Source: Nanobdellota archaeon
GTDB lineage: Archaea; Nanobdellota; Nanobdellia; Nanobdellales; Nanobdellaceae
Direction of reading: 5' to 3'
Length of the DNA: 32,000 nucleotides
Assembly (NCBI GenBank): GCA_042850255.1
Contig: AP031373.1
Span: forward strand, 150,001 to 182,000
The notes beneath the pieces were generated by a model. The model had not been told where the DNA came from. It made no database searches and saw only the letters and a list, made by a program, of their open reading frames with translations. Positions 7,589-26,288 of the stretch are shown piece after piece. Positions within the stretch are counted from its first letter, which is position 1. Each line of letters starts with the position of its first letter. Made by a program: the position numbers and the translations under genes.

Positions 7589-7885
7589 ATGAAGTCAGAA
7601 ACTGCTGTTGGAATTGGAATGCTATTGCCTGCTTTATTAATATTGGCAACATTAGTAACTACAACAAATTATCTAGTAAAAGATATACAACAAATGAACG
7701 GAGGATTAATTACATATGCAAATTGTGCACAAAATATGATGAATTACGCTTTCCTAGGGCAAGTATATAATTTTACTCAATGCTATCTACAACAAGTAAA
7801 TCAGACGCAATTAAATTGTTACTATAATTCTACAAATATTGTTTGTAATGTAAATGGAACTTCTTATGTGTATCCATTAAACTAA
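7589..7885 (+). CDS. Small secreted or membrane-anchored Cys/Asn-rich protein, same style as the 16.7-20.0 kb cluster
   Basis: 98 aa. The N-terminus MKSETAVGIGMLLPALLILATLV is a single hydrophobic helix. The remainder has 4 Cys and 4 N-x-S/T sequons (NFT, NQT, NST, NGT). It is preceded by a 286-bp AT-rich spacer. Confidence 0.6.
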   Translation: MKSETAVGIGMLLPALLILATLVTTTNYLVKDIQQMNGGLITYANCAQNMMNYAFLGQVYNFTQCYLQQVNQTQLNCYYNSTNIVCNVNGTSYVYPLN

Positions 7886-13006: not shown

Positions 13007-13078
13007 GGGCCCGTAGTCTAGTCGTAGGATGTCGGCCTGGCTAGCCGGAGATCCCGGGTTCAAATCCCGGCGGGTCCA
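13007..13078 (+). tRNA. tRNA-Ala (anticodon GGC)
   Basis: Hand-folded cloverleaf: acceptor GGGCCCG/CGGGTCC with the G3:U70 Ala identity pair, anticodon stem TCGGC/GCCGG, loop CTGGCTA, T-arm CCGGG-TTCAAAT-CCCGG, discriminator A. No CCA is encoded. Confidence 0.9.
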
Positions 13079-14281
13079 CTAATTTAGACTTCTATTTAAA
13101 ATCAAATTAGCGATTATTAAATAATCTCTTAGCTCTCTAGTTATTAAGAAATTTTTTCTAACATGTTCTTTTCCATTTTCTCCCAATTTTTCTCTTATTT
13201 CCTTATTTTTTAGTAAATACATTATATAATGAGCTGCTTCCTCTGGAGTATTTACTAAATATCCAGTCACATTATTAATTACTTGTAAAGGTATTCCACC
13301 AGTATTTCCACCAATTACAGGTTTTTCTTTCCATAAAGCTTCACTAATAGTTAATCCAAATCCTTCCTTTATAGATTTTTGAAGAACTACTGTAGCACTT
13401 CTCTGAAATGCATTGACTTCCAAATAACTATTAGGAGGCAACATTAATAATTTTATATCTTTATCATCACCTGCTACTTTAACAGTTTCTTCATATACTA
13501 CTTCACTTTCAGGATCATCAGAAGCTGGACTACCTAAATAAACTAATTGAACATCATAACTTGACTTTACTATTTTATAAGCTTTTATAACTCCTATAGG
13601 ATCCTTTGCCCTGTCAAATCTAGATACTTGTAATATTATTGGCCTTTCTGGATTTACATCATATCTATATAATATTCTTCTTATAGTTATTTCTGGTATT
13701 TCTTTATTTCTAGGACTCAGAGGATCTATAGATGGTGGGACAATATATTGAGGTTTGTTTATATCATCCCTACCAAATATTTGAGATGATACTATTATAC
13801 TATCATATTGTTCTACATATTTCTTTAAAAAACTCCAAACAGGTTGATAAGGATTTGAAATATCTATATGACATCTCCATATCCACTTACCACCTTTTTT
13901 AAATTTTATTAAACCTAAAGGTTGAGGATCGTGAACAAATATTATATCATAATCTAGATCTAATTCTTCCCCATTTATTTCTTGCCATCTATTGTATATT
14001 TGAAAAGCATCCTTTGGTAAATTTCCAAAACCATTTTGCAAAGAATTATGAAAAGACTTTGTTACAGTAAAGAATTCTTTATCTCCTCTAATAATTTTCC
14101 AATCAGTTTCTATACCAAGTTCCTTCATCAATGGAACTATCCTATTTAATATTGTAGCAACTCCTCCACCACTTGGAGTAGAATTTATATGAAGTATAGA
14201 TACTCCATTCAATTTCTCCGCTATTTTTATAATATTATCTAATTCCTCTTCCCCTATTATACTTTCGTATTTTTCTATCAT
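13079..14281 (-). CDS. treT: Trehalose glycosyltransferring synthase (TreT-type GT4 glycosyltransferase)
   Basis: HINSTPSGGGVATILNRIVPLMKELGIETDWKII.G...FF.VTKSFHNSLQ, HDPQP, WRCHID, PPSIDPLS, QVSRFD and EGFGLTISEALWKEKPVIG are collinear with archaeal TreT as I remember it. The stop codon directly abuts the tRNA-Ala 3' end. Confidence 0.8.
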   Translation of the reverse strand: MIEKYESIIGEEELDNIIKIAEKLNGVSILHINSTPSGGGVATILNRIVPLMKELGIETDWKIIRGDKEFFTVTKSFHNSLQNGFGNLPKDAFQIYNRWQEINGEELDLDYDIIFVHDPQPLGLIKFKKGGKWIWRCHIDISNPYQPVWSFLKKYVEQYDSIIVSSQIFGRDDINKPQYIVPPSIDPLSPRNKEIPEITIRRILYRYDVNPERPIILQVSRFDRAKDPIGVIKAYKIVKSSYDVQLVYLGSPASDDPESEVVYEETVKVAGDDKDIKLLMLPPNSYLEVNAFQRSATVVLQKSIKEGFGLTISEALWKEKPVIGGNTGGIPLQVINNVTGYLVNTPEEAAHYIMYLLKNKEIREKLGENGKEHVRKNFLITRELRDYLIIANLILNRSLN

Positions 14282-14958
14282 GAAAATATTAATTCTTCTA
14301 TTCTTTTTATTATTTCCTGCCTTAATTTCTCTCCATCATCATAAATTATTGGATCTATAGAAGATAAAGAATCTGACAGAGTCCTTAAACCATAGTTTTC
14401 CTCTATCCATAAAGAAAAATCATTTTTTGTAGTTTCTCCCATTAATCTTCTAAATATAAAATGATAAATTATAGAATTTATAGATATTACTGAAATATTA
14501 TCTATTAATTCTCCTAAATCTTTTGCTATCTTATCATTTTTAAATATAAATGGAGTACAAGAAATAAAAATAAATGGTTTAGATGCTTTTTCATCAATTT
14601 TATTTTCTTCTAATATTTTTATTATATCATTTCTAATATTTTCTATATTTTTAGGTTCTCTTCCATCTAATTTAGATAATTTTTTAGATAATTCTATATC
14701 ATGTAATTCTTCTTTTACCCATAAAGCGAAATCATTATGTAATTCTCCAGGAACTGTATAATTTATAAATAATTGATGAAAAACATGGTAAAATATAGAT
14801 AATTTATCTACTTTCTTTATTCCCTCAATTAATTGGTTTACATCATATGCCTTTATATTTGTATATTTAGGGATATAGTATGAACTTAGAAATTCAAAGG
14901 GTTTTTGTGCTGGTTTGTCTAATAATTCTTTATCAATCATGGAAAATTTCTTATACAA
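14278..14958 (-). CDS. Hypothetical protein with an internal two-fold repeat, ATGA-coupled to treT
   Basis: The repeats are SIFYHVFHQLF...NDFALWVKEE...LSKLD and SIIYHFIFRRL...NDFSLWIEEN...LSSID. There is a 4-nt overlap with the treT start. Confidence 0.65.
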   Translation of the reverse strand: MYKKFSMIDKELLDKPAQKPFEFLSSYYIPKYTNIKAYDVNQLIEGIKKVDKLSIFYHVFHQLFINYTVPGELHNDFALWVKEELHDIELSKKLSKLDGREPKNIENIRNDIIKILEENKIDEKASKPFIFISCTPFIFKNDKIAKDLGELIDNISVISINSIIYHFIFRRLMGETTKNDFSLWIEENYGLRTLSDSLSSIDPIIYDDGEKLRQEIIKRIEELIFS

Positions 14959-15136: not shown

Positions 15137-15207
15137 GCACCCGTCGTCTAGTGGTAGGATGCGGGCCTTCCAAGCCCGCGGCCCGGGTTCAAATCCCGGC
15201 GGGTGCA
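15137..15207 (+). tRNA. tRNA-Gly (anticodon UCC)
   Basis: Acceptor GCACCCG/CGGGTGC, D-arm GTCT-AGTGGTA-GGAT, anticodon stem CGGGC/GCCCG, loop CTTCCAA, T-arm CCGGG-TTCAAAT-CCCGG, discriminator A. No CCA is encoded. Confidence 0.9.
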
Positions 15208-15411
15208 TCTAAAATATCTAAGATATATATGTAAATACTGTTTGTTCTATAGGCTGATATTATGTATATATAACTATGAATGTATTAAGTTATAAGAATA
15301 CTCTGATAGACTATCTTATGATGGATAAAAAATAAGATTAAAAGAATATTAAGATGTTTTATCAAAAATCTAAATAACAATTTATTAATATTGAAATTCT
15401 TATTTAGGAAT

Positions 15412-16713
15412 ATGGATATTATAGTTGGAAGGTCTTTAGATGATTTAGAAAAATATGGTTATTTAGGATCTATTTACATTGGAAAAGAATATATAAAAAT
15501 GGAAAATGCCATATCATTAGCAAATAAAGTATATTTAGATGTTAACTTGCCACATTTAATATTAATTGCTGGAAAAAGAGGACAAGGAAAAAGTTATACA
15601 TTGGCTTCTATGTTTGAAAGTTTATCATTATTGGAAAAAGATTTATTAGAAAATTTTTCAGGATTGATATTTGATACTATGGGTATATTTTGGACAATGA
15701 AGTTTCCAAATTATAGAGATGCAGAATTATTGGAAAAATGGGATTTAAAACCTCAATCTGTTCAAAATGCTAGAATATTAGTACCTAGAGGATTAATAGA
15801 TGAATATAGAAAAATAAATATACCTATAGATGATGTTTTTGAATTAAATCCTGCAGATTTATCTGGAATAGAATGGGCTCTAACATTTAATTTAGATCCT
15901 TCCTCAACAATCGCATTATATATACAAAGAATAATAAAGAAGATGAAAGAAAATTCCAATGGGTATTCTATACAGGATATAATAGATTATACTCAAAAAT
16001 TAAATATTGATAATAAAATAAAAAATGCTATAATAACATATTTTGATAGTGCAGATAGTTGGGGTTTATTTTCTGAAAAAGCAGAAACAATTAGAAATTT
16101 AATAAAACCTGGGTATATAAATATTCTAGATGTTTCATTATATACTGCAATAACTGGTGGATGGTCTATAAAAAATTTAGTTATAGGATTAGTAGCTAAA
16201 AAAATATTTTATCAAAGATTATTATATAGAAAGGTCGAAGAACTAGAAGAAATATATATTTCAAAAGAATTAGGTAATAGAAAGTTTCCATTAATTTGGA
16301 TGGCAATAGATGAAGCACATGAAGCATTGCCAAATGATTCTATAACTCCAGCAACAGAACCTTTAATACAAATAATAAGAGAAGGAAGACAGCCTGGAAT
16401 AACATTAGTATTAGCAACTCAGCAACCTGGAAAAATGCATACAGATGTTATAACACAAAGTGATGTTGTAATTTCCCATAGAGTAACTGCAGAAAAGGAT
16501 TTAAAATCTTTAAATGAGATAATGAAAAATTTTACTGCACAAGATATAGATATTTATATGAATGAAAATTTACCAAAAAGAAAAGGAGCCGCATTAATTT
16601 TAGATGATAAATCTGAAAAAATATATCCTGTACAAATGAAACCTAGATTTTCTTGGCATGGGGGTGCAGATCCTACTTTAATTAGAAAGAGATTATGGTT
16701 AGAATCCAAGTAA
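15412..16713 (+). CDS. HerA/DUF87-like P-loop ATPase (FtsK-HerA superfamily)
   Basis: Walker A is AGKRGQGKS and Walker B is LIWMAIDEAHE. Also present are REGRQPGITLVLATQQPG, ISHRV and a C-terminal KPRFSWHGG. The track starts at TTG 15391. I prefer ATG 15412, which has TTTATTAA about 30 nt upstream. No transmembrane segment is present. Confidence 0.85.
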   Translation: MDIIVGRSLDDLEKYGYLGSIYIGKEYIKMENAISLANKVYLDVNLPHLILIAGKRGQGKSYTLASMFESLSLLEKDLLENFSGLIFDTMGIFWTMKFPNYRDAELLEKWDLKPQSVQNARILVPRGLIDEYRKINIPIDDVFELNPADLSGIEWALTFNLDPSSTIALYIQRIIKKMKENSNGYSIQDIIDYTQKLNIDNKIKNAIITYFDSADSWGLFSEKAETIRNLIKPGYINILDVSLYTAITGGWSIKNLVIGLVAKKIFYQRLLYRKVEELEEIYISKELGNRKFPLIWMAIDEAHEALPNDSITPATEPLIQIIREGRQPGITLVLATQQPGKMHTDVITQSDVVISHRVTAEKDLKSLNEIMKNFTAQDIDIYMNENLPKRKGAALILDDKSEKIYPVQMKPRFSWHGGADPTLIRKRLWLESK

Positions 16714-18737
16714 AAGAAGTAGAAGGTGTAATTGCAATTGTTATATTTATTTCATTTTTAACATTTTATTTAGCAATGTATAGAAGTTATATAACAAATA
16801 GAATAGATAATTTTAATCAATTAAATTATTATAATACATACTTAAATCAAATATTAAATAATATAGAAGCTCAATATTATTTATTATCATTAAATATTAC
16901 CATACCAATTTCTATGTATTATCAATGTTCATTAGGTTCTCCAATATATGTTAACTTGCTGGGATATAATGCTTATAATGATTTTTGCACAAATTTTCCA
17001 ATATTTTATCCTTTAAATATATCTTTTTTAACCAATTATTCTGGAGTTTTAAATGATACAAATAATACATATTTAGATCCAAATATTGGTTTATATTTTT
17101 ATTTAAATATAACAAATTTAACTATTAATAATAATCAACCACAATATGTTCTAATAAATATTTCAAATCCTACAAACAATAATATAGGACCTATAAATTT
17201 ATTTATAACTTCTCCAGTAATTTTTTATTGGCTACAAAATGGAAATAATTTATCAGTAAATAAATATAATACGTTTTCAGTCCAATTTTGTTATGAAAAT
17301 GGAAATTTTAACTGTAATAGTAATAATAATGGAGCTTATGGGATTTGGTTAAGTGATATGTACATTCCAGCAAATAGCTACATAGTATTAAATATTTCAC
17401 CTTCTTCAAATAATAATGATGCAATAAATGGAAATAATATATTTGCATATTATAACAATAGTCAAATAGATTCTATCTTTGGTCAAACAAATTTGAATAT
17501 AAATTATATAAATCCTGGATATTATTTAATAATATTCAACGCTTCTACAATATCAAATAATGGATATATACAATTTGGGAATTGCAATATAAATATACCA
17601 AATACTATCGGTTTTAATTATAATTTTGCTTATCTTTGTTATCTAAATCAATCTACAAATTCTATAATTATAAATAATATTGATTTAAACTATATAGTAA
17701 TATTATACTATTATAGCATAGTACCAGAAATTAATGTTATTTATCAACCAAATATAACTTCAACTTTTAATTTTATTATAGGACCAAATTTAACCTATAA
17801 TTTTTCTCAATATAATGATCTAGGATATAATAGTAATAGTATATATAATAGTCACATAGAATATAATGAAAACTTAATTACATCATCTGGCTTTTATTAT
17901 TCATCTCTCAATTTTAGCAACATTTATAATAATTATATTTTATTTAGTTCTTTGTATACTTCCCAAAACGAACCTTATTATTTAAATTCTAATTATATAG
18001 TAAATGATTCTCTAGCATTATTGTATTTATATTCTAACAATTATTTATCTATTAAAAAAATATTATTTTCCAATACATATTGGTTTATTATAAATACAGA
18101 AAAATATTATGATTCTACGAATATGATTTATTGGAATACAAATTTACCTACTTATGGATTTCAAGGATATTATTACATTAACTTTTATGATATACCATTA
18201 TCTCTTCAATTTTCTCTATTAAATAACTATTCTTTTTATCCATATGAAAATGGAATACTAATTTCTAATGGTGTAAGCAATTATGCTATTTTATTTACAA
18301 ATTATAATCCTATTATAAATTTAACAGATGATAATGGAGAATGCTTAGAAACAGGTCAAGGATGTATGCTAAATTTGACATTACTAAATAATTATCAATA
18401 TGAAAATTATTATTTATATTTTTATTATAATCGAAGAATAATAGACTATAGTACTGCAGAATATCTATCATTTTCTACACAAATCCCAATATTAAAAATA
18501 AATTATATAGAACCAATTAATGTAATAAATATTAATAATTTGATTTCTATATCTTCAAATTACCCAAATATTTATTTTTACTTTAAAAATCTAAATATTA
18601 CAATATATAATGGAACTGTTTATCAAGGAAATATAGTAAACAATTATGAATATTCTCAACAATATAATGTATATATATTAAATAATACAGTTGTAAATAC
18701 TTTATATAAGGATAAAATGATAATATATATAAAATGA
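16695..18737 (+). CDS. Large N-terminally anchored Asn/Tyr/Ile-rich putative surface glycoprotein
   Basis: 680 aa. The N-terminus MVRIQVKEVEG-VIAIVIFISFLTFYLAMY is followed by an ectodomain with about 24 N-x-S/T sequons (hand count) and 8 Cys in four local pairs. The start overlaps the ATPase stop by 19 nt. Confidence 0.75.
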   Translation: MVRIQVKEVEGVIAIVIFISFLTFYLAMYRSYITNRIDNFNQLNYYNTYLNQILNNIEAQYYLLSLNITIPISMYYQCSLGSPIYVNLLGYNAYNDFCTNFPIFYPLNISFLTNYSGVLNDTNNTYLDPNIGLYFYLNITNLTINNNQPQYVLINISNPTNNNIGPINLFITSPVIFYWLQNGNNLSVNKYNTFSVQFCYENGNFNCNSNNNGAYGIWLSDMYIPANSYIVLNISPSSNNNDAINGNNIFAYYNNSQIDSIFGQTNLNINYINPGYYLIIFNASTISNNGYIQFGNCNINIPNTIGFNYNFAYLCYLNQSTNSIIINNIDLNYIVILYYYSIVPEINVIYQPNITSTFNFIIGPNLTYNFSQYNDLGYNSNSIYNSHIEYNENLITSSGFYYSSLNFSNIYNNYILFSSLYTSQNEPYYLNSNYIVNDSLALLYLYSNNYLSIKKILFSNTYWFIINTEKYYDSTNMIYWNTNLPTYGFQGYYYINFYDIPLSLQFSLLNNYSFYPYENGILISNGVSNYAILFTNYNPIINLTDDNGECLETGQGCMLNLTLLNNYQYENYYLYFYYNRRIIDYSTAEYLSFSTQIPILKINYIEPINVININNLISISSNYPNIYFYFKNLNITIYNGTVYQGNIVNNYEYSQQYNVYILNNTVVNTLYKDKMIIYIK

Positions 18738-19054
18738 GAAACTGGATAATACTTGTAGAACTGGCATTTTCAATAATTTTATTATCTTTTTTCTTTTTAT
18801 ATAATTATTATTTTAAATTTCCAAATCAAAATATACAAAATTATGATCCAAAAATATTAGAAAGTTTAAATTCTTCTTGTAATAATAATTTGTATATTTA
18901 TGAAATAATAAATCTAACAAATAATAATATTACAATATGCTATTTTGGAAAAAGTGTGAATTATACATATATACAAAACCTACAACCTGTATTTGAATAT
19001 TTATATGCAGGGCAAAATAGTTATAACCCTTATATATTAATAATATTCTCATGA
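18734..19054 (+). CDS. Small N-terminally anchored Asn/Tyr-rich protein
   Basis: 106 aa with MRNWIILVELAFSIILLSFFFL, then 4 sequons and 2 Cys. ATGA overlaps at both ends. Confidence 0.65.
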   Translation: MRNWIILVELAFSIILLSFFFLYNYYFKFPNQNIQNYDPKILESLNSSCNNNLYIYEIINLTNNNITICYFGKSVNYTYIQNLQPVFEYLYAGQNSYNPYILIIFS

Positions 19055-19491
19055 AATCACAATATATATTATTAGCAACCATATTTATAATAGTTATTTT
19101 ATCTGTTTTGACATATTATAATATAAGACCAATAAATAATATTAATGAAAATTTAATAGGAAATAATTTTGAAGAAGAAATAAAATATATATACAAAAAT
19201 TTTGGATACAATTATATAGGAAATTATACATTATATTTTGAAAATTATACTAGTTCTATAAATTATAATTTCTCTTTTATATGTATATCTTCATATAATT
19301 TATCTTTACCACAATGCAATGGAAATAATGTAGATTGTTGTTATTATTTTTCAGGATATTTTAATGTAAATCCTTCTATATTAAAATATTGCAATGAAAA
19401 CTTTATATTATATAATCCTCCAAACTGGATATGTTTTTGCTATAACATAAATAGATCTAATGAATATTATACAAACTTCTTCTGTATTTAA
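19051..19491 (+). CDS. Small N-terminally anchored Cys-rich, Asn/Tyr-rich protein
   Basis: 146 aa with MKSQYILLATIFIIVILSVL, then 5 sequons and 8 Cys concentrated in the C-terminal half. ATGA-coupled to the upstream ORF. Confidence 0.65.
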   Translation: MKSQYILLATIFIIVILSVLTYYNIRPINNINENLIGNNFEEEIKYIYKNFGYNYIGNYTLYFENYTSSINYNFSFICISSYNLSLPQCNGNNVDCCYYFSGYFNVNPSILKYCNENFILYNPPNWICFCYNINRSNEYYTNFFCI

Positions 19492-19958
19492 CATTGGTAT
19501 ATATAATAACCATTTTCTGTTTTATTTAATATTAAACAAATACTATTACCATATATTGTGTAGTTATTTGATGTAATTGAAAAAGGGATAGTATTCATTG
19601 TAAAATTGTATAAATAATAATTATAGGATAATTGGGTAATATTCAAGTTAATATAAGAAGGTAAAGTTAAAGAATAATTTATTGGAGAATAATATATACT
19701 TTCTATTTCTCCTGGAAATATATATATTGTTAATCCATTTGGTATATCTTCCTGAAATTTATAAGTACAAGAATAACAGGATCCTATAAGATCTATTTGA
19801 TAATTTAAATCTGTCAATAAATTAACAGTATATTTTAAGTTTATTTGAGCTTGTTGATTAGAGATAGTTATATGTACATAGTATAATAGTATGGATAAAA
19901 CAGCTAAAGCAAAAGATGTATATATTAAAAACTCAACCCATAAACTAATACCTTTCAT
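19488..19958 (-). CDS. Prepilin-like N-terminally anchored Asn/Tyr-rich protein
   Basis: 156 aa. MKG-ISLWVEFLIYTSFALAVLSILL resembles a class III signal peptide (K-G, then a hydrophobic run with Glu). It has 5 sequons and 4 Cys. Its start is ATGA-coupled to the rps19e stop, and its stop overlaps the converging ORF's stop (TTAA). Confidence 0.65.
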   Translation of the reverse strand: MKGISLWVEFLIYTSFALAVLSILLYYVHITISNQQAQINLKYTVNLLTDLNYQIDLIGSCYSCTYKFQEDIPNGLTIYIFPGEIESIYYSPINYSLTLPSYINLNITQLSYNYYLYNFTMNTIPFSITSNNYTIYGNSICLILNKTENGYYIYQC

Positions 19959-20464
19959 GTAACACTTTTAACATAATCTAATAAATTTTTATCTTCTTTT
20001 GATAGTTCCTCATACATATCCTTTGCCAATTTATCCATTATACTTTTTCCATTATTAGTAACTATTCTACCCCTCTTTCTTCCTTCAGTAATTTTCATTA
20101 CTAGTCCTGCTTGTTCTAATTGTTGTAATATTAATCTAACTATTTTTCCATATCCTTTAACAAATTTTCCAGGTTCCATACCTCTTTTTCTTAATCCACC
20201 ATATTTTTTTCTCAATCTTGAAACACCAATTGGTCCTTTCAAATATACTTGCCTTAAAATTGATGCTGCCCTATAATACCACCAACCTGGTTCTCCGTTA
20301 TAATCTACATCAGGGGGAAAGTCCGGATTTCTTTCTCTATCTGGTCCTGTCCTAATAAAAAAAGCCCAACTAGGTGGTTTTATCATTTCTTTATAGTTCT
20401 CAAATAAATATTTTGCTAATCTTTCAACATATTTATTCCCAGGTATATCTCTGACTGTAACCAT
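19955..20464 (-). CDS. rps19e: Ribosomal protein eS19 (S19e)
   Basis: VRDIPGNKYVERLAKYL, WWYYRAASILRQVY, GVSRLRKKYGG and ILQQLEQAGLV. The track start at 20473 is a TTG, and the first ATG is at 20464 (MVTVRD). Confidence 0.9.
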   Translation of the reverse strand: MVTVRDIPGNKYVERLAKYLFENYKEMIKPPSWAFFIRTGPDRERNPDFPPDVDYNGEPGWWYYRAASILRQVYLKGPIGVSRLRKKYGGLRKRGMEPGKFVKGYGKIVRLILQQLEQAGLVMKITEGRKRGRIVTNNGKSIMDKLAKDMYEELSKEDKNLLDYVKSVT

Positions 20465-24899: not shown

Positions 24900-26288
24900 A
24901 TGGGTGTTATAAGAGAAAAATTAATAGAATTCTATAAAAAAAATAATGAAATTTTAGAAGATATTGTAAAGATATCTCAAAATAGAGAAGTAGGATATTT
25001 ATTAACTAATGGTTCTTTTGGACATAGACCTTCAAAGATTGAAACAAAAGAAGATATAATAGAATATTTAAAAAAAGGAGCTTTATCTTTTCATATATCA
25101 ATAGAAAGATGGGTAGATTTAAATATATTAGAAGATAAATCCTCTAAAAAAGAATTAAATGACTATAGATTAGGATGGGATTTTGTTATAGATATTGATG
25201 CTAAATCATTAGAATTATCAAAAATAACTGCTAGATTAATAATAGATTATTTAAAAAATAGAAATATTAAACCTATATATATTAAATATTCTGGTAATAA
25301 AGGATTTCATATAGCAATACCCTGGGAAATTTTTCCAGAAACCATTAATATAAACAAAAAGGATGAAATTGTTGAAGAAGAAACTAGGAAACTTTTTCCA
25401 GATTTGGCAAGAATATTAGCATTATATATTGCTGAAGAAATAAGAGAAAAATTAAAGAAAGTTATATTGTTGAAATTTAATGAAGAAGAAATAAAAAATT
25501 TTGGAGTAAATGATATAGAAAAATTTGATCCATATGAAATTATAGAAATAGATACTATTTTAATATCTACAAGACATTTAATAAGAAGTTTGTATTCTAT
25601 AAATGAAAAAACAGGTTATTTATCTATACCAATAAAAGAAAATTATATAGAAAAAATAATTCCAGAAGATGCTAGTTTAGATAATTATTCTTATGAAAAT
25701 ATACCATTTTTAACCGAAGATATTGATAGAAAAGAATCTAATGAATTTAAAGAATTTATATATTCATCATTATTATGGAAATTAAATAATGAAATTAAAA
25801 GTAAACAGATACAAAGATTAGCAGAGAAATATAAAAATCAAGAAGGAATTGAAGAAACTGAAAAAGATATAGAGGAAATAAAAAGGAAAAAAATTAATAT
25901 TGATGAAAATCTATTTCCTCCATGCATTAAAAATATACTTAACGGAAATATAGAAGATGGTAGAAAAAGAGCATTATTTATATTAATAAATTTTCTTGCG
26001 AATATAGGATGGGATTGGGAAAAAATAGAAAAATATATAAAAGAATGGAATGATAATTTAGATGAACCTTTGAGAGATAGATATTTAGAATATCAATTAG
26101 AATGGCATAAAAAAATATACAAAGAAAATAAAAAATATTTAACACCAAATTGTAATAATGAGATATATTATAAAGATATTGGAGTATGTAAACCTGATGA
26201 AATTTGTTCTTTAATTAAAAATCCTTTATCATATCCAATAAAAAAGATTAAAAATATAAAATCTTCTCAGGACTCTCAAAATAATTGA
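24900..26288 (+). CDS. pri: DNA primase, single-chain fusion of the PriS catalytic domain and a PriL-type Fe-S C-terminal domain
   Basis: The N-terminal half has WDFVIDIDA and SGNKGFHIAIPW (AEP primase motifs). The C-terminal part has FPPCIKNILNG..GRKRALFILINFL plus three more Cys (NCNN, GVCKPDEIC), which are PriL-CTD-like cluster ligands. Confidence 0.8.
   Translation: MGVIREKLIEFYKKNNEILEDIVKISQNREVGYLLTNGSFGHRPSKIETKEDIIEYLKKGALSFHISIERWVDLNILEDKSSKKELNDYRLGWDFVIDIDAKSLELSKITARLIIDYLKNRNIKPIYIKYSGNKGFHIAIPWEIFPETININKKDEIVEEETRKLFPDLARILALYIAEEIREKLKKVILLKFNEEEIKNFGVNDIEKFDPYEIIEIDTILISTRHLIRSLYSINEKTGYLSIPIKENYIEKIIPEDASLDNYSYENIPFLTEDIDRKESNEFKEFIYSSLLWKLNNEIKSKQIQRLAEKYKNQEGIEETEKDIEEIKRKKINIDENLFPPCIKNILNGNIEDGRKRALFILINFLANIGWDWEKIEKYIKEWNDNLDEPLRDRYLEYQLEWHKKIYKENKKYLTPNCNNEIYYKDIGVCKPDEICSLIKNPLSYPIKKIKNIKSSQDSQNN

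Follow-up and report, generated by a model that had tools for sequence, protein, structure and literature searches.

Nanobdellota archaeon YN1 ('Ca. Nanofervidus parviconus') is an ectosymbiont of Sulfurisphaera, and the DNA considered here is a 32,000-nt segment of its chromosome (contig AP031373.1, positions 150,001 to 182,000; GC content 24%), referred to below as the window. In this segment, a gene encoding a HerA-like ATPase is accompanied by genes for four N-terminally anchored proteins, designated here D1 to D4. It is proposed, with moderate confidence, that D1–D4 are a lineage-specific set of adhesin and minor-pilin-like proteins of a type IV filament system, and that the ATPase is not a motor dedicated to them. 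The first-pass annotation, made from the sequence alone, had described the five genes as a candidate apparatus of a new kind, powered by a HerA-type motor of its own. Its observations were accurate, its central interpretation is not supported, and the set is best read as genes for a highly diverged DUF2341 adhesin and minor-pilin-like proteins located beside a widely conserved ATPase gene. The YN1 DNA examined comprised the window and look-ups a few kb past both of its ends.

D1–D4 are the products of real genes: at least 10 Nanopusillaceae genomes contain orthologues, in which conservation is highest at the cysteines and most of all in the N-terminal helices. The common plan previously ascribed to the four proteins holds, with one N-terminal hydrophobic helix in each, and the counts of cysteines (8, 2, 8 and 4 in D1, D2, D3 and D4) and of sequons (24, 4, 5 and 5) were reproduced. 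Charged residues make up 7–10% of these proteins, compared with ~30% in cytoplasmic neighbours, and Asn and Tyr together account for 24–32%. As the first-pass annotation had it, D1–D4 are extracellular, are anchored in the membrane and have conserved cysteines. The 38 sequons observed compare with ~24 expected on shuffling, a ~1.6-fold excess, and their density is mostly a by-product of the Asn-rich composition.

When 1.84 billion representatives were searched exhaustively with HMMER, no homologue of D1 or D3 turned up outside Nanopusillaceae. Family scans of D1–D4 against Pfam, NCBIfam, PHROGs and PADLOC gave no match, and none of the four families, used as a profile against the PDB, yielded anything below E 0.09. 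Only trivial transmembrane-helix similarity was obtained by hhalign among D2, D3 and D4, as well as between D4 and an ArlF/G-like protein. The published papers on YN1, N. aerobiophila and YN4 do not mention the D1–D4 cluster.

The class III (prepilin-type) signals suggested for some of these N-termini are plausible, and clearest for D1. Across 29 sequences, the D1 residues K7, E8, E10, G11 and I13–F18 are at least 90% conserved, which gives K-E-x-E-G and then I-A-I-V-I-F; E-[G/A] followed by hydrophobic residues is found in all six of the divergent D1 orthologues. K-E-x-E-[G/A] with its hydrophobic stretch fits the FlaFind pattern, the cleavage being putative. In the AlphaFold2 (AF2) model of D1, residues 2–57 form a single ~56-residue helix that leads into a beta-strand and on to beta domains; the model confidence (pLDDT) is ~80 at residues 10–240 and ~88 at 600–680, the middle of the protein being poorly modelled. 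The predicted helix-then-strand layout would be the pilin-type arrangement. Four of the eight D1 cysteines (C78, C98, C199 and C207) are invariant in the 29 sequences.

According to profile comparisons, D1 carries a divergent DUF2341 (PF10102) domain, which becomes convincing only through exhaustive profile search. A direct Pfam scan detected no DUF2341 match in D1, with one family member at only E=3.1, and the hhalign comparison of D1 with one DUF2341 protein was insignificant. The library-wide search with the D1 profile returned remote matches only via positions ~150–270 (E 1.7e-13 to 1e-3). Every one of the ten remote matches tested carries Pfam DUF2341 (E 4e-7 to 2e-33) at a position that overlaps its match to D1, and one of them also bears the bacterial pilin N_methyl motif. 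The alignment of D1 with DUF2341 keeps the signature FCY..C / G.iW..l.i.an / vdG..iF.vYdnF.

The leader of the smaller proteins D2–D4 consists only of M-[K/R]-x. D2 starts with M-R-[S/G/N]-W-I-I-L-V-E, in which Glu9 is invariant; its two cysteines are invariant as well, a G...P.ILI motif is conserved at the C-terminus, and the protein has no Pfam, NCBIfam or PDB match. In a 28-sequence alignment of D3, the start M-K-S-Q-Y-I-L is near-invariant among full-length members and eight cysteines are at least 90% conserved. In D4, S-L-[W/F]-[V/I]-E-F-L-I-Y and four cysteines are invariant; the residue before this motif varies (G/G/G/G/D/S), and the class III assignment is weaker here than for D1. D2 and D4 share an invariant Glu at position 9 within an otherwise hydrophobic, strongly conserved N-terminal helix. 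The AF2 model of D3 (pLDDT 89.5) comprises a transmembrane helix at residues 2–25, helices at 33–51 and 53–69, and then a six-stranded sheet. Structure prediction, which had been put forward as a check on the surface assignment, produced a helix and beta domains for D1 and, for D3, a model to which Foldseek found no PDB match.

A direct link to type IV pilus (T4P) genes is present in a relative whose ATPase is 66% identical to that of YN1 (locus L088). The gene order in this locus is M48 peptidase, ATPase, D1 (541 aa), D2-like (92 aa), D3-like (130 aa), two T2SSF genes and T2SSE, the D3-like gene adjoining T2SSF. Of the two T2SSF products, one corresponds to the N-terminal and the other to the C-terminal half of ArlJ/FlaJ, which gives a split FlaJ/TadC platform, and the T2SSE product is FlaI-like (407 bits to FlaI, for a cut-off of 550). 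It had been correctly reported that NurA/Mre11/Rad50 and T2SSE/T2SSF genes are all missing from the window; this reflects the limits of the window only. Given the linkage in L088, these limits would account for the lack of PilB/FlaI and platform genes beside D1–D4. The idea of a new apparatus operating without PilB/FlaI or a platform protein is not supported, in view of this locus and of the DUF2341 domain of D1, which is typical of T4P adhesins.

Published work provides the framework for this assignment. YN1 has the archaellum genes FlaBDEHIJF and makes archaella (PMC11420986), so a prepilin peptidase is expected in this organism, and a strain related to YN1 has been reported to encode T4P genes. 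In the survey by Makarova et al. 2016 (PMC4858521), the large DUF2341 proteins of archaeal T4P loci were described as PilY-like tip adhesins and the small class III proteins at these loci as minor pilins, the components having conserved cysteines and very fast evolution. The same authors noted nanoarchaeal T4P ATPases lacking identifiable cognate pilins (PMC4858521).

Archaeal T4P loci (type IV filament, TFF; PMC4858521; subsystem 4A/system 1, bioRxiv 10.64898/2026.04.22.720090) resemble the D1–D4 set in having a large secreted DUF2341 protein with a prepilin-type N-terminus (a candidate one in D1), together with several small, very fast-evolving N-anchored proteins with conserved cysteines. 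The YN1 set differs in lying apart from any T4P core gene within the sequence examined, in that D2–D4 match no known pilin family and have a residue other than G/A at position −1, in the lack of a solved counterpart for the D3 fold, and in a D1 DUF2341 domain too divergent for direct Pfam detection. The bacterial PilY1 and minor pilins (FimU, PilV/W/X) or GspH/I/J/K tips also consist of one large and three or four small proteins, and there a large adhesin is presented by a few low-abundance pilin-like proteins that prime the filament. However, sequence homology with these bacterial systems is limited to the DUF2341 domain, and the archaeal proteins are predicted to be glycosylated and are disulfide-rich. 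The archaellum stator proteins ArlF/ArlG are, like D2–D4, small (140–160 aa) and N-terminally anchored, although no similarity to D2–D4 is detectable by NCBIfam or hhalign.

Genuine ArlF/ArlG-like genes do flank the ATPase–D1 block in the relatives L012, L010/L011 and L090. Genes of this kind and one for a second DUF2341 protein (462 aa) were recorded beside the block at L090 (3100..4943, minus strand), L010/L011 (upstream of the ATPase) and L012 (10588..11469, plus strand). Within Nanopusillaceae, pilin and archaellum-accessory genes thus appear to gather around the ATPase as in a hotspot.

The second part of the proposal, concerning the ATPase, is based on the open reading frames called around its gene in 90 loci. 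Of ~80 genome loci, D1 is located 3' of the ATPase only in those of Nanopusillaceae, namely in the window and in L001/L009, L003/L004, L006, L007, L011, L012, L088, L090 and L091. Elsewhere, in ~70 loci, the gene that follows the ATPase differs between loci and never encodes a same-strand N-anchored protein, and nothing resembles D1–D4. In L086/L087 (ATPase 57% identical), the stop codon of the ATPase overlaps a radical-SAM (UPF0004) gene instead of D1, again a tight overlap but with an unrelated gene, and in L089 a cytoplasmic protein is encoded directly after the ATPase. Outside Nanopusillaceae, the recurrent neighbours are a TYW2-type methyltransferase (24 loci), a membrane-anchored thioredoxin/SurA_N protein (21), an M48/HtpX-like peptidase (15), an RFC-like AAA+ protein (15), DnaG (12), RPA (8) and FEN1 (7). 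A general association of the ATPase with T2SSE was not found by tblastn, as T2SSE lies within ~7 kb in only 3–4 of the 90 loci, roughly the level of chance. The broad distribution of the ATPase, combined with the lineage restriction of D1 and D3, is therefore a poor fit to a dedicated motor. The first-pass annotation had assigned the ATPase to D1–D4 and had asked whether its clade is always linked to such genes; outside Nanopusillaceae it is widespread in DPANN archaea with unrelated neighbours.

Regarding the gene contexts themselves, the commonest divergent neighbour is a membrane thioredoxin/DsbA-like protein, often with SurA_N, encoded directly upstream on the opposite strand (L014, L038, L065 and ~20 other Woesearchaeota loci). 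An HtpX-like M48 peptidase gene is directly upstream of the ATPase in L012 and L088 as well.

The assignment of the ATPase to the HerA/FtsK superfamily was confirmed: the motifs AGKRGQGKS, LIWMAIDEAHE, REGRQPGITLVLATQQPG and PRFSWHGG are all present, and the scores with Pfam DUF87 (41.1 bits, cut-off 23.2) and HerA_C (24.1, cut-off 22) are above threshold. The best PDB sequence matches are HerA proteins (E 1e-8 to 1e-3), in the C-terminal half only, the PDB and NCBIfam alignments beginning at residue 160 or beyond. Walker A starts at ~residue 54 of 433, leaving only ~50 residues before it, and no HAS-barrel was matched by Pfam at E<=0.1. The NCBIfam HerA equivalogs remain far under their cut-offs (HerA_Thermprot 30.6 bits of 800, helicase_HerA 30.5 of 970, HerA_antiphage_2 39.3 of 850). 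No NurA, Mre11 or Rad50 gene was found in the window, in the Pfam-annotated neighbourhoods of nine related loci or among the annotated recurrent neighbour clusters (~80 loci). These genes, the usual HerA partners, are thus not conserved partners of this ATPase, which is therefore no canonical HerA either.

The YN1 ATPase shares with the HerA–NurA end-resection helicase the FtsK/HerA P-loop core, Walker A and B, conserved R/Q motifs, and DUF87 and HerA_C. It differs from it in lacking the HAS-barrel N-domain and NurA/Mre11/Rad50 neighbours, and in belonging to a clade confined to DPANN archaea. A canonical HerA was accordingly rejected, on the missing HAS-barrel, HerA model scores of 30–39 bits compared with 800–970, and the missing neighbours. 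The family includes more than 3320 homologous proteins and, among the matches listed, confirmation was obtained for 560 of the 600 genome stretches scanned, with 43–50% identity in Woesearchaeota, Pacearchaeota and other Nanoarchaeota; it has ~80 invariant columns, including the C-terminal W-H-G-G. On these sequence relationships, the ATPase is a separate HerA/FtsK-like clade of DPANN archaea, neither canonical HerA nor NurA-linked. Judging by homology, it probably forms a hexameric translocase and fulfils a housekeeping role. No membrane segment was found in the protein. In PADLOC, its best match is mad8/HerA of the MADS defence system (full profile covered, E 3.9e-19); a defence-system role was discarded, as there is no other defence gene nearby.

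According to the model favoured here, D1–D4 would be Nanopusillaceae-specific, fast-evolving surface proteins of a type IV (pilus-type) filament. D1 would be the large adhesin, inserted into the filament or held in the membrane by its prepilin-like N-terminus and ~56-residue helix, and exposing outward a DUF2341 lectin-like domain and beta-rich, glycosylated, disulfide-bonded domains. D2, D3 and D4 would act as small N-anchored, disulfide-stabilised minor-pilin-like proteins and, by analogy with PilY1 and the minor pilins, may form a complex that primes the filament or makes up its tip, with D1 displayed on it. Assembly would depend on a conventional FlaI/PilB-type ATPase and a FlaJ/TadC platform presumably encoded elsewhere in YN1, and the N-termini would be processed by the prepilin peptidase that YN1 needs for its archaellins. 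The HerA-like ATPase would be a conserved neighbour co-transcribed with D1 in a compact genome. Among the options raised initially, an adhesin or attachment fibre comes close to this model, without the HerA-driven assembly that was attached to it.

Several results weigh against this assignment. The putative −1 residue varies in the small proteins (S/G/N in D2, S/N/T/A/V in D3, G/D/S in D4), and no Pfam or NCBIfam pilin model matches D1–D4. In the high-confidence D3 model, the N-terminal helix is broken at residues 26–32 rather than continuous, and Foldseek found no match of this model to solved pilins or to any PDB fold. The linkage to T4P genes is seen in one relative only, and no T2SSE, T2SSF or prepilin peptidase gene is present in the window or a few kb past its ends. 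Finally, the ATPase–D1 junction, with an overlap of 4–28 nt, is never broken in four deep Nanopusillaceae lineages in which both flanks change. The broken helix of D3 and its lack of a solved neighbour imply that D2–D4 may be new folds or plain membrane anchors.

In the latter case, D1–D4 would be Sec-inserted, signal-anchored surface glycoproteins, uncleaved and outside any filament, forming a membrane adhesin or envelope complex, for instance at the host contact, with the ATPase as an unrelated neighbour. The variable −1 residues, the absence of pilin family or fold matches, the interrupted D3 helix and the lack of a T4P core gene in the window all agree with this possibility. However, the E-[G/A] site of D1 is conserved and precedes a 56-residue helix, the DUF2341 domain is typical of pilus adhesins, and the gene set adjoins T2SSE/T2SSF in L088. 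In addition, N-terminal helices that are the most conserved part of the proteins, with an invariant Glu in D2 and D4, would be odd for a passive anchor. This alternative is regarded as unlikely, albeit the most credible of those considered.

The unbroken ATPase–D1 junction leaves a functional tie alive as a slightly slimmer chance: a HerA/FtsK-type ATPase could have been recruited in Nanopusillaceae into the D1–D4 system, either as an accessory motor serving the secretion, extraction or quality control of the adhesin set or as a pilus regulator. In type VII and type IV secretion, FtsK-like ATPases act as the motors of protein export, and the YN1 ATPase has a weak NCBIfam match to EssC (E 4.5e-5). 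The ATPase–D1(–D2–D3) block is intact, with overlapping stop and start codons, in the four deep lineages, and the ATPase–D1 pair persists in L012 despite the replacement of D2 and D3. Its DPANN neighbours are often envelope-protein factors, such as the thioredoxin/SurA_N and HtpX-like proteins counted above. Nevertheless, hundreds of genomes lacking D1–D4 encode an orthologue whose invariant motifs are the same, and DNA replication genes also recur beside it. A membrane segment is missing from the ATPase and a polytopic channel from the cluster, and D2–D4 expose just 2–3 cytoplasmic residues, which offer a motor almost no grip. Overlapping coding sequences can also fix adjacency without any functional link: the frames may merely lock the pair, with D1 using the ATPase promoter.

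The gene junctions, read from the sequence, agree with the initial description: the ATPase and D1 overlap by 19 nt, D1/D2 and D2/D3 are joined by ATGA, and the stop codons of D3 and D4 overlap in TTAA. D4 converges on D3 from behind the ribosomal protein S19e gene, whose stop codon its ATG overlaps (ATGA-coupled). The translational coupling of these genes had been taken as a sign of shared function, a view that the coupling of D4 to S19e undermines. Overlaps affect 19 of the 43 adjacent gene pairs in the window, including 12 of the 27 same-strand pairs; gene overlap says little about function in YN1, because it is the norm, even between D4 and S19e.

A broader version of the recruitment idea, which we rate as improbable, is that the ATPase is an envelope-biogenesis motor throughout DPANN archaea (soluble, type VII-secretion-like or an extraction motor) and no DNA enzyme, hard-wired in Nanopusillaceae to a host-attaching set of DUF2341 adhesin and minor pilins. 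If true, it would explain the unbroken ATPase–D1 junction, the thioredoxin/SurA_N and HtpX-like neighbours and the absence of NurA.

The two other options raised in the first-pass annotation found no support. A domesticated viral module, in which spike or coat proteins accompany a packaging or assembly ATPase (of the STIV B204/PRD1 type or the inovirus pI/Zot type), is very improbable. The arrangement in YN1, with one ATPase, one large and several small single-helix proteins, has a superficial likeness to the morphogenesis block of inoviruses. The ATPase also has a weak, partial match to STIV B204 (E 0.017–0.043), a Pfam Zot score of 19.7 bits (cut-off 20.3) and PHROG terminase/FtsK-like matches confined to its Walker B region. 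Against this, comparison of the D1 model with BFVD gave no real structural match (TM-scores ~0.05–0.12), D1–D4 have no PHROG match, and no capsid, integrase or repeat boundaries were seen in the window; the ATPase is vertically conserved and chromosomal, amid ribosomal, replication and division genes. Least probable of all is a conduit of the Ced/Ted kind, importing nucleic acid with a HerA/VirB4-like ATPase as its motor: the ATPase is in the same superfamily as CedB/VirB4 and has a marginal TrwB_AAD_bind match only (E 0.093), but the cluster contains neither a polytopic CedA-like protein nor a VirB2-like two-helix pilin, D1–D4 each have a single anchor and a large ectodomain, the ATPase is not anchored in the membrane, and the DUF2341 domain of D1 points to adhesion.

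All five open reading frames were confirmed at the positions originally given for them (Table 1). The ATPase frame had been listed from 15391 and 15412; the ATG at 15412, not 15391, is the start, since orthologues begin MDIIVGR or MNIIIGR. Identity is 100% between the encoded ATPase and database protein P0001, as it is between the D1 product and YN1_1890.

Table 1. Position of the ATPase gene, the D1–D4 genes and the adjacent ribosomal protein gene in the window.
Feature	Position	Strand	Evidence or content
HerA/FtsK-superfamily P-loop ATPase, soluble, 433 aa	15412..16713	+	Pfam DUF87 and HerA_C
D1 (YN1_1890), 680 aa, pilin-like adhesin candidate	16695..18737	+	N-terminus, long helix, DUF2341, further beta-rich domains
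D1 N-terminus, MVRIQVKEVEG then VIAIVIFISFLTFYLAMY	16695..16790	+	candidate class III signal and hydrophobic pilin-type helix
D1 divergent DUF2341 domain, ~residues 150–258	17142..17468	+	profile search
D2, 106 aa, N-anchored, minor-pilin-like candidate	18734..19054	+	
D3 (YN1_1910), 146 aa, N-anchored, 8 Cys, minor-pilin-like candidate	19051..19491	+	
D4, 156 aa, N-anchored, 4 Cys, minor-pilin-like candidate	19488..19958	-	
Ribosomal protein S19e gene, outside the system	19955..20464	-	Pfam Ribosomal_S19e in orthologous loci

Other features of the window were recorded. A tRNA-Gly(TCC) gene (15137..15207, plus strand) is located inside the 471-nt gap directly upstream of the ATPase. Further upstream, genes for a TreT-like trehalose synthase and a DUF5752 protein (13079..14958, minus strand) overlap by 4 nt; this pair is a lineage-specific insertion upstream of the ATPase, as it is absent there in N. 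aerobiophila and NZ13-N. A tRNA-Ala(GGC) gene (13007..13079, plus strand) abuts the end of the trehalose synthase gene. At 24900..26288 (plus strand), one 462-aa protein with primase small- and large-subunit domains appears to be a fused PriS–PriL. Another small protein (98 aa; MKSETAVGIGMLLPALLILA...), encoded at 7589..7885 (plus strand), is N-anchored and poor in charged residues, contains 4 cysteines and 4 sequons, is kept in L001 and L003 and has no family match; it, too, may belong to the surface or pilin-like proteins.

Few DPANN symbionts have been cultivated, YN1 and Nanobdella aerobiophila among them, and the question is how these two recognize and hold their host. Cryo-electron tomography has revealed filaments and a cone-shaped attachment organelle, with genes assigned to neither (PMC11420986). 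The cluster studied here supplies candidate pilus proteins, namely the DUF2341 adhesin YN1_1890 and three small partners that include YN1_1910, and the quick divergence of D1–D4 is as expected for host-specificity determinants. The ATPase is flagged separately as an uncharacterised but widely conserved HerA/FtsK-like clade of DPANN archaea. D1–D4 thereby become testable candidates for host-attachment proteins in a cultivated DPANN symbiont.

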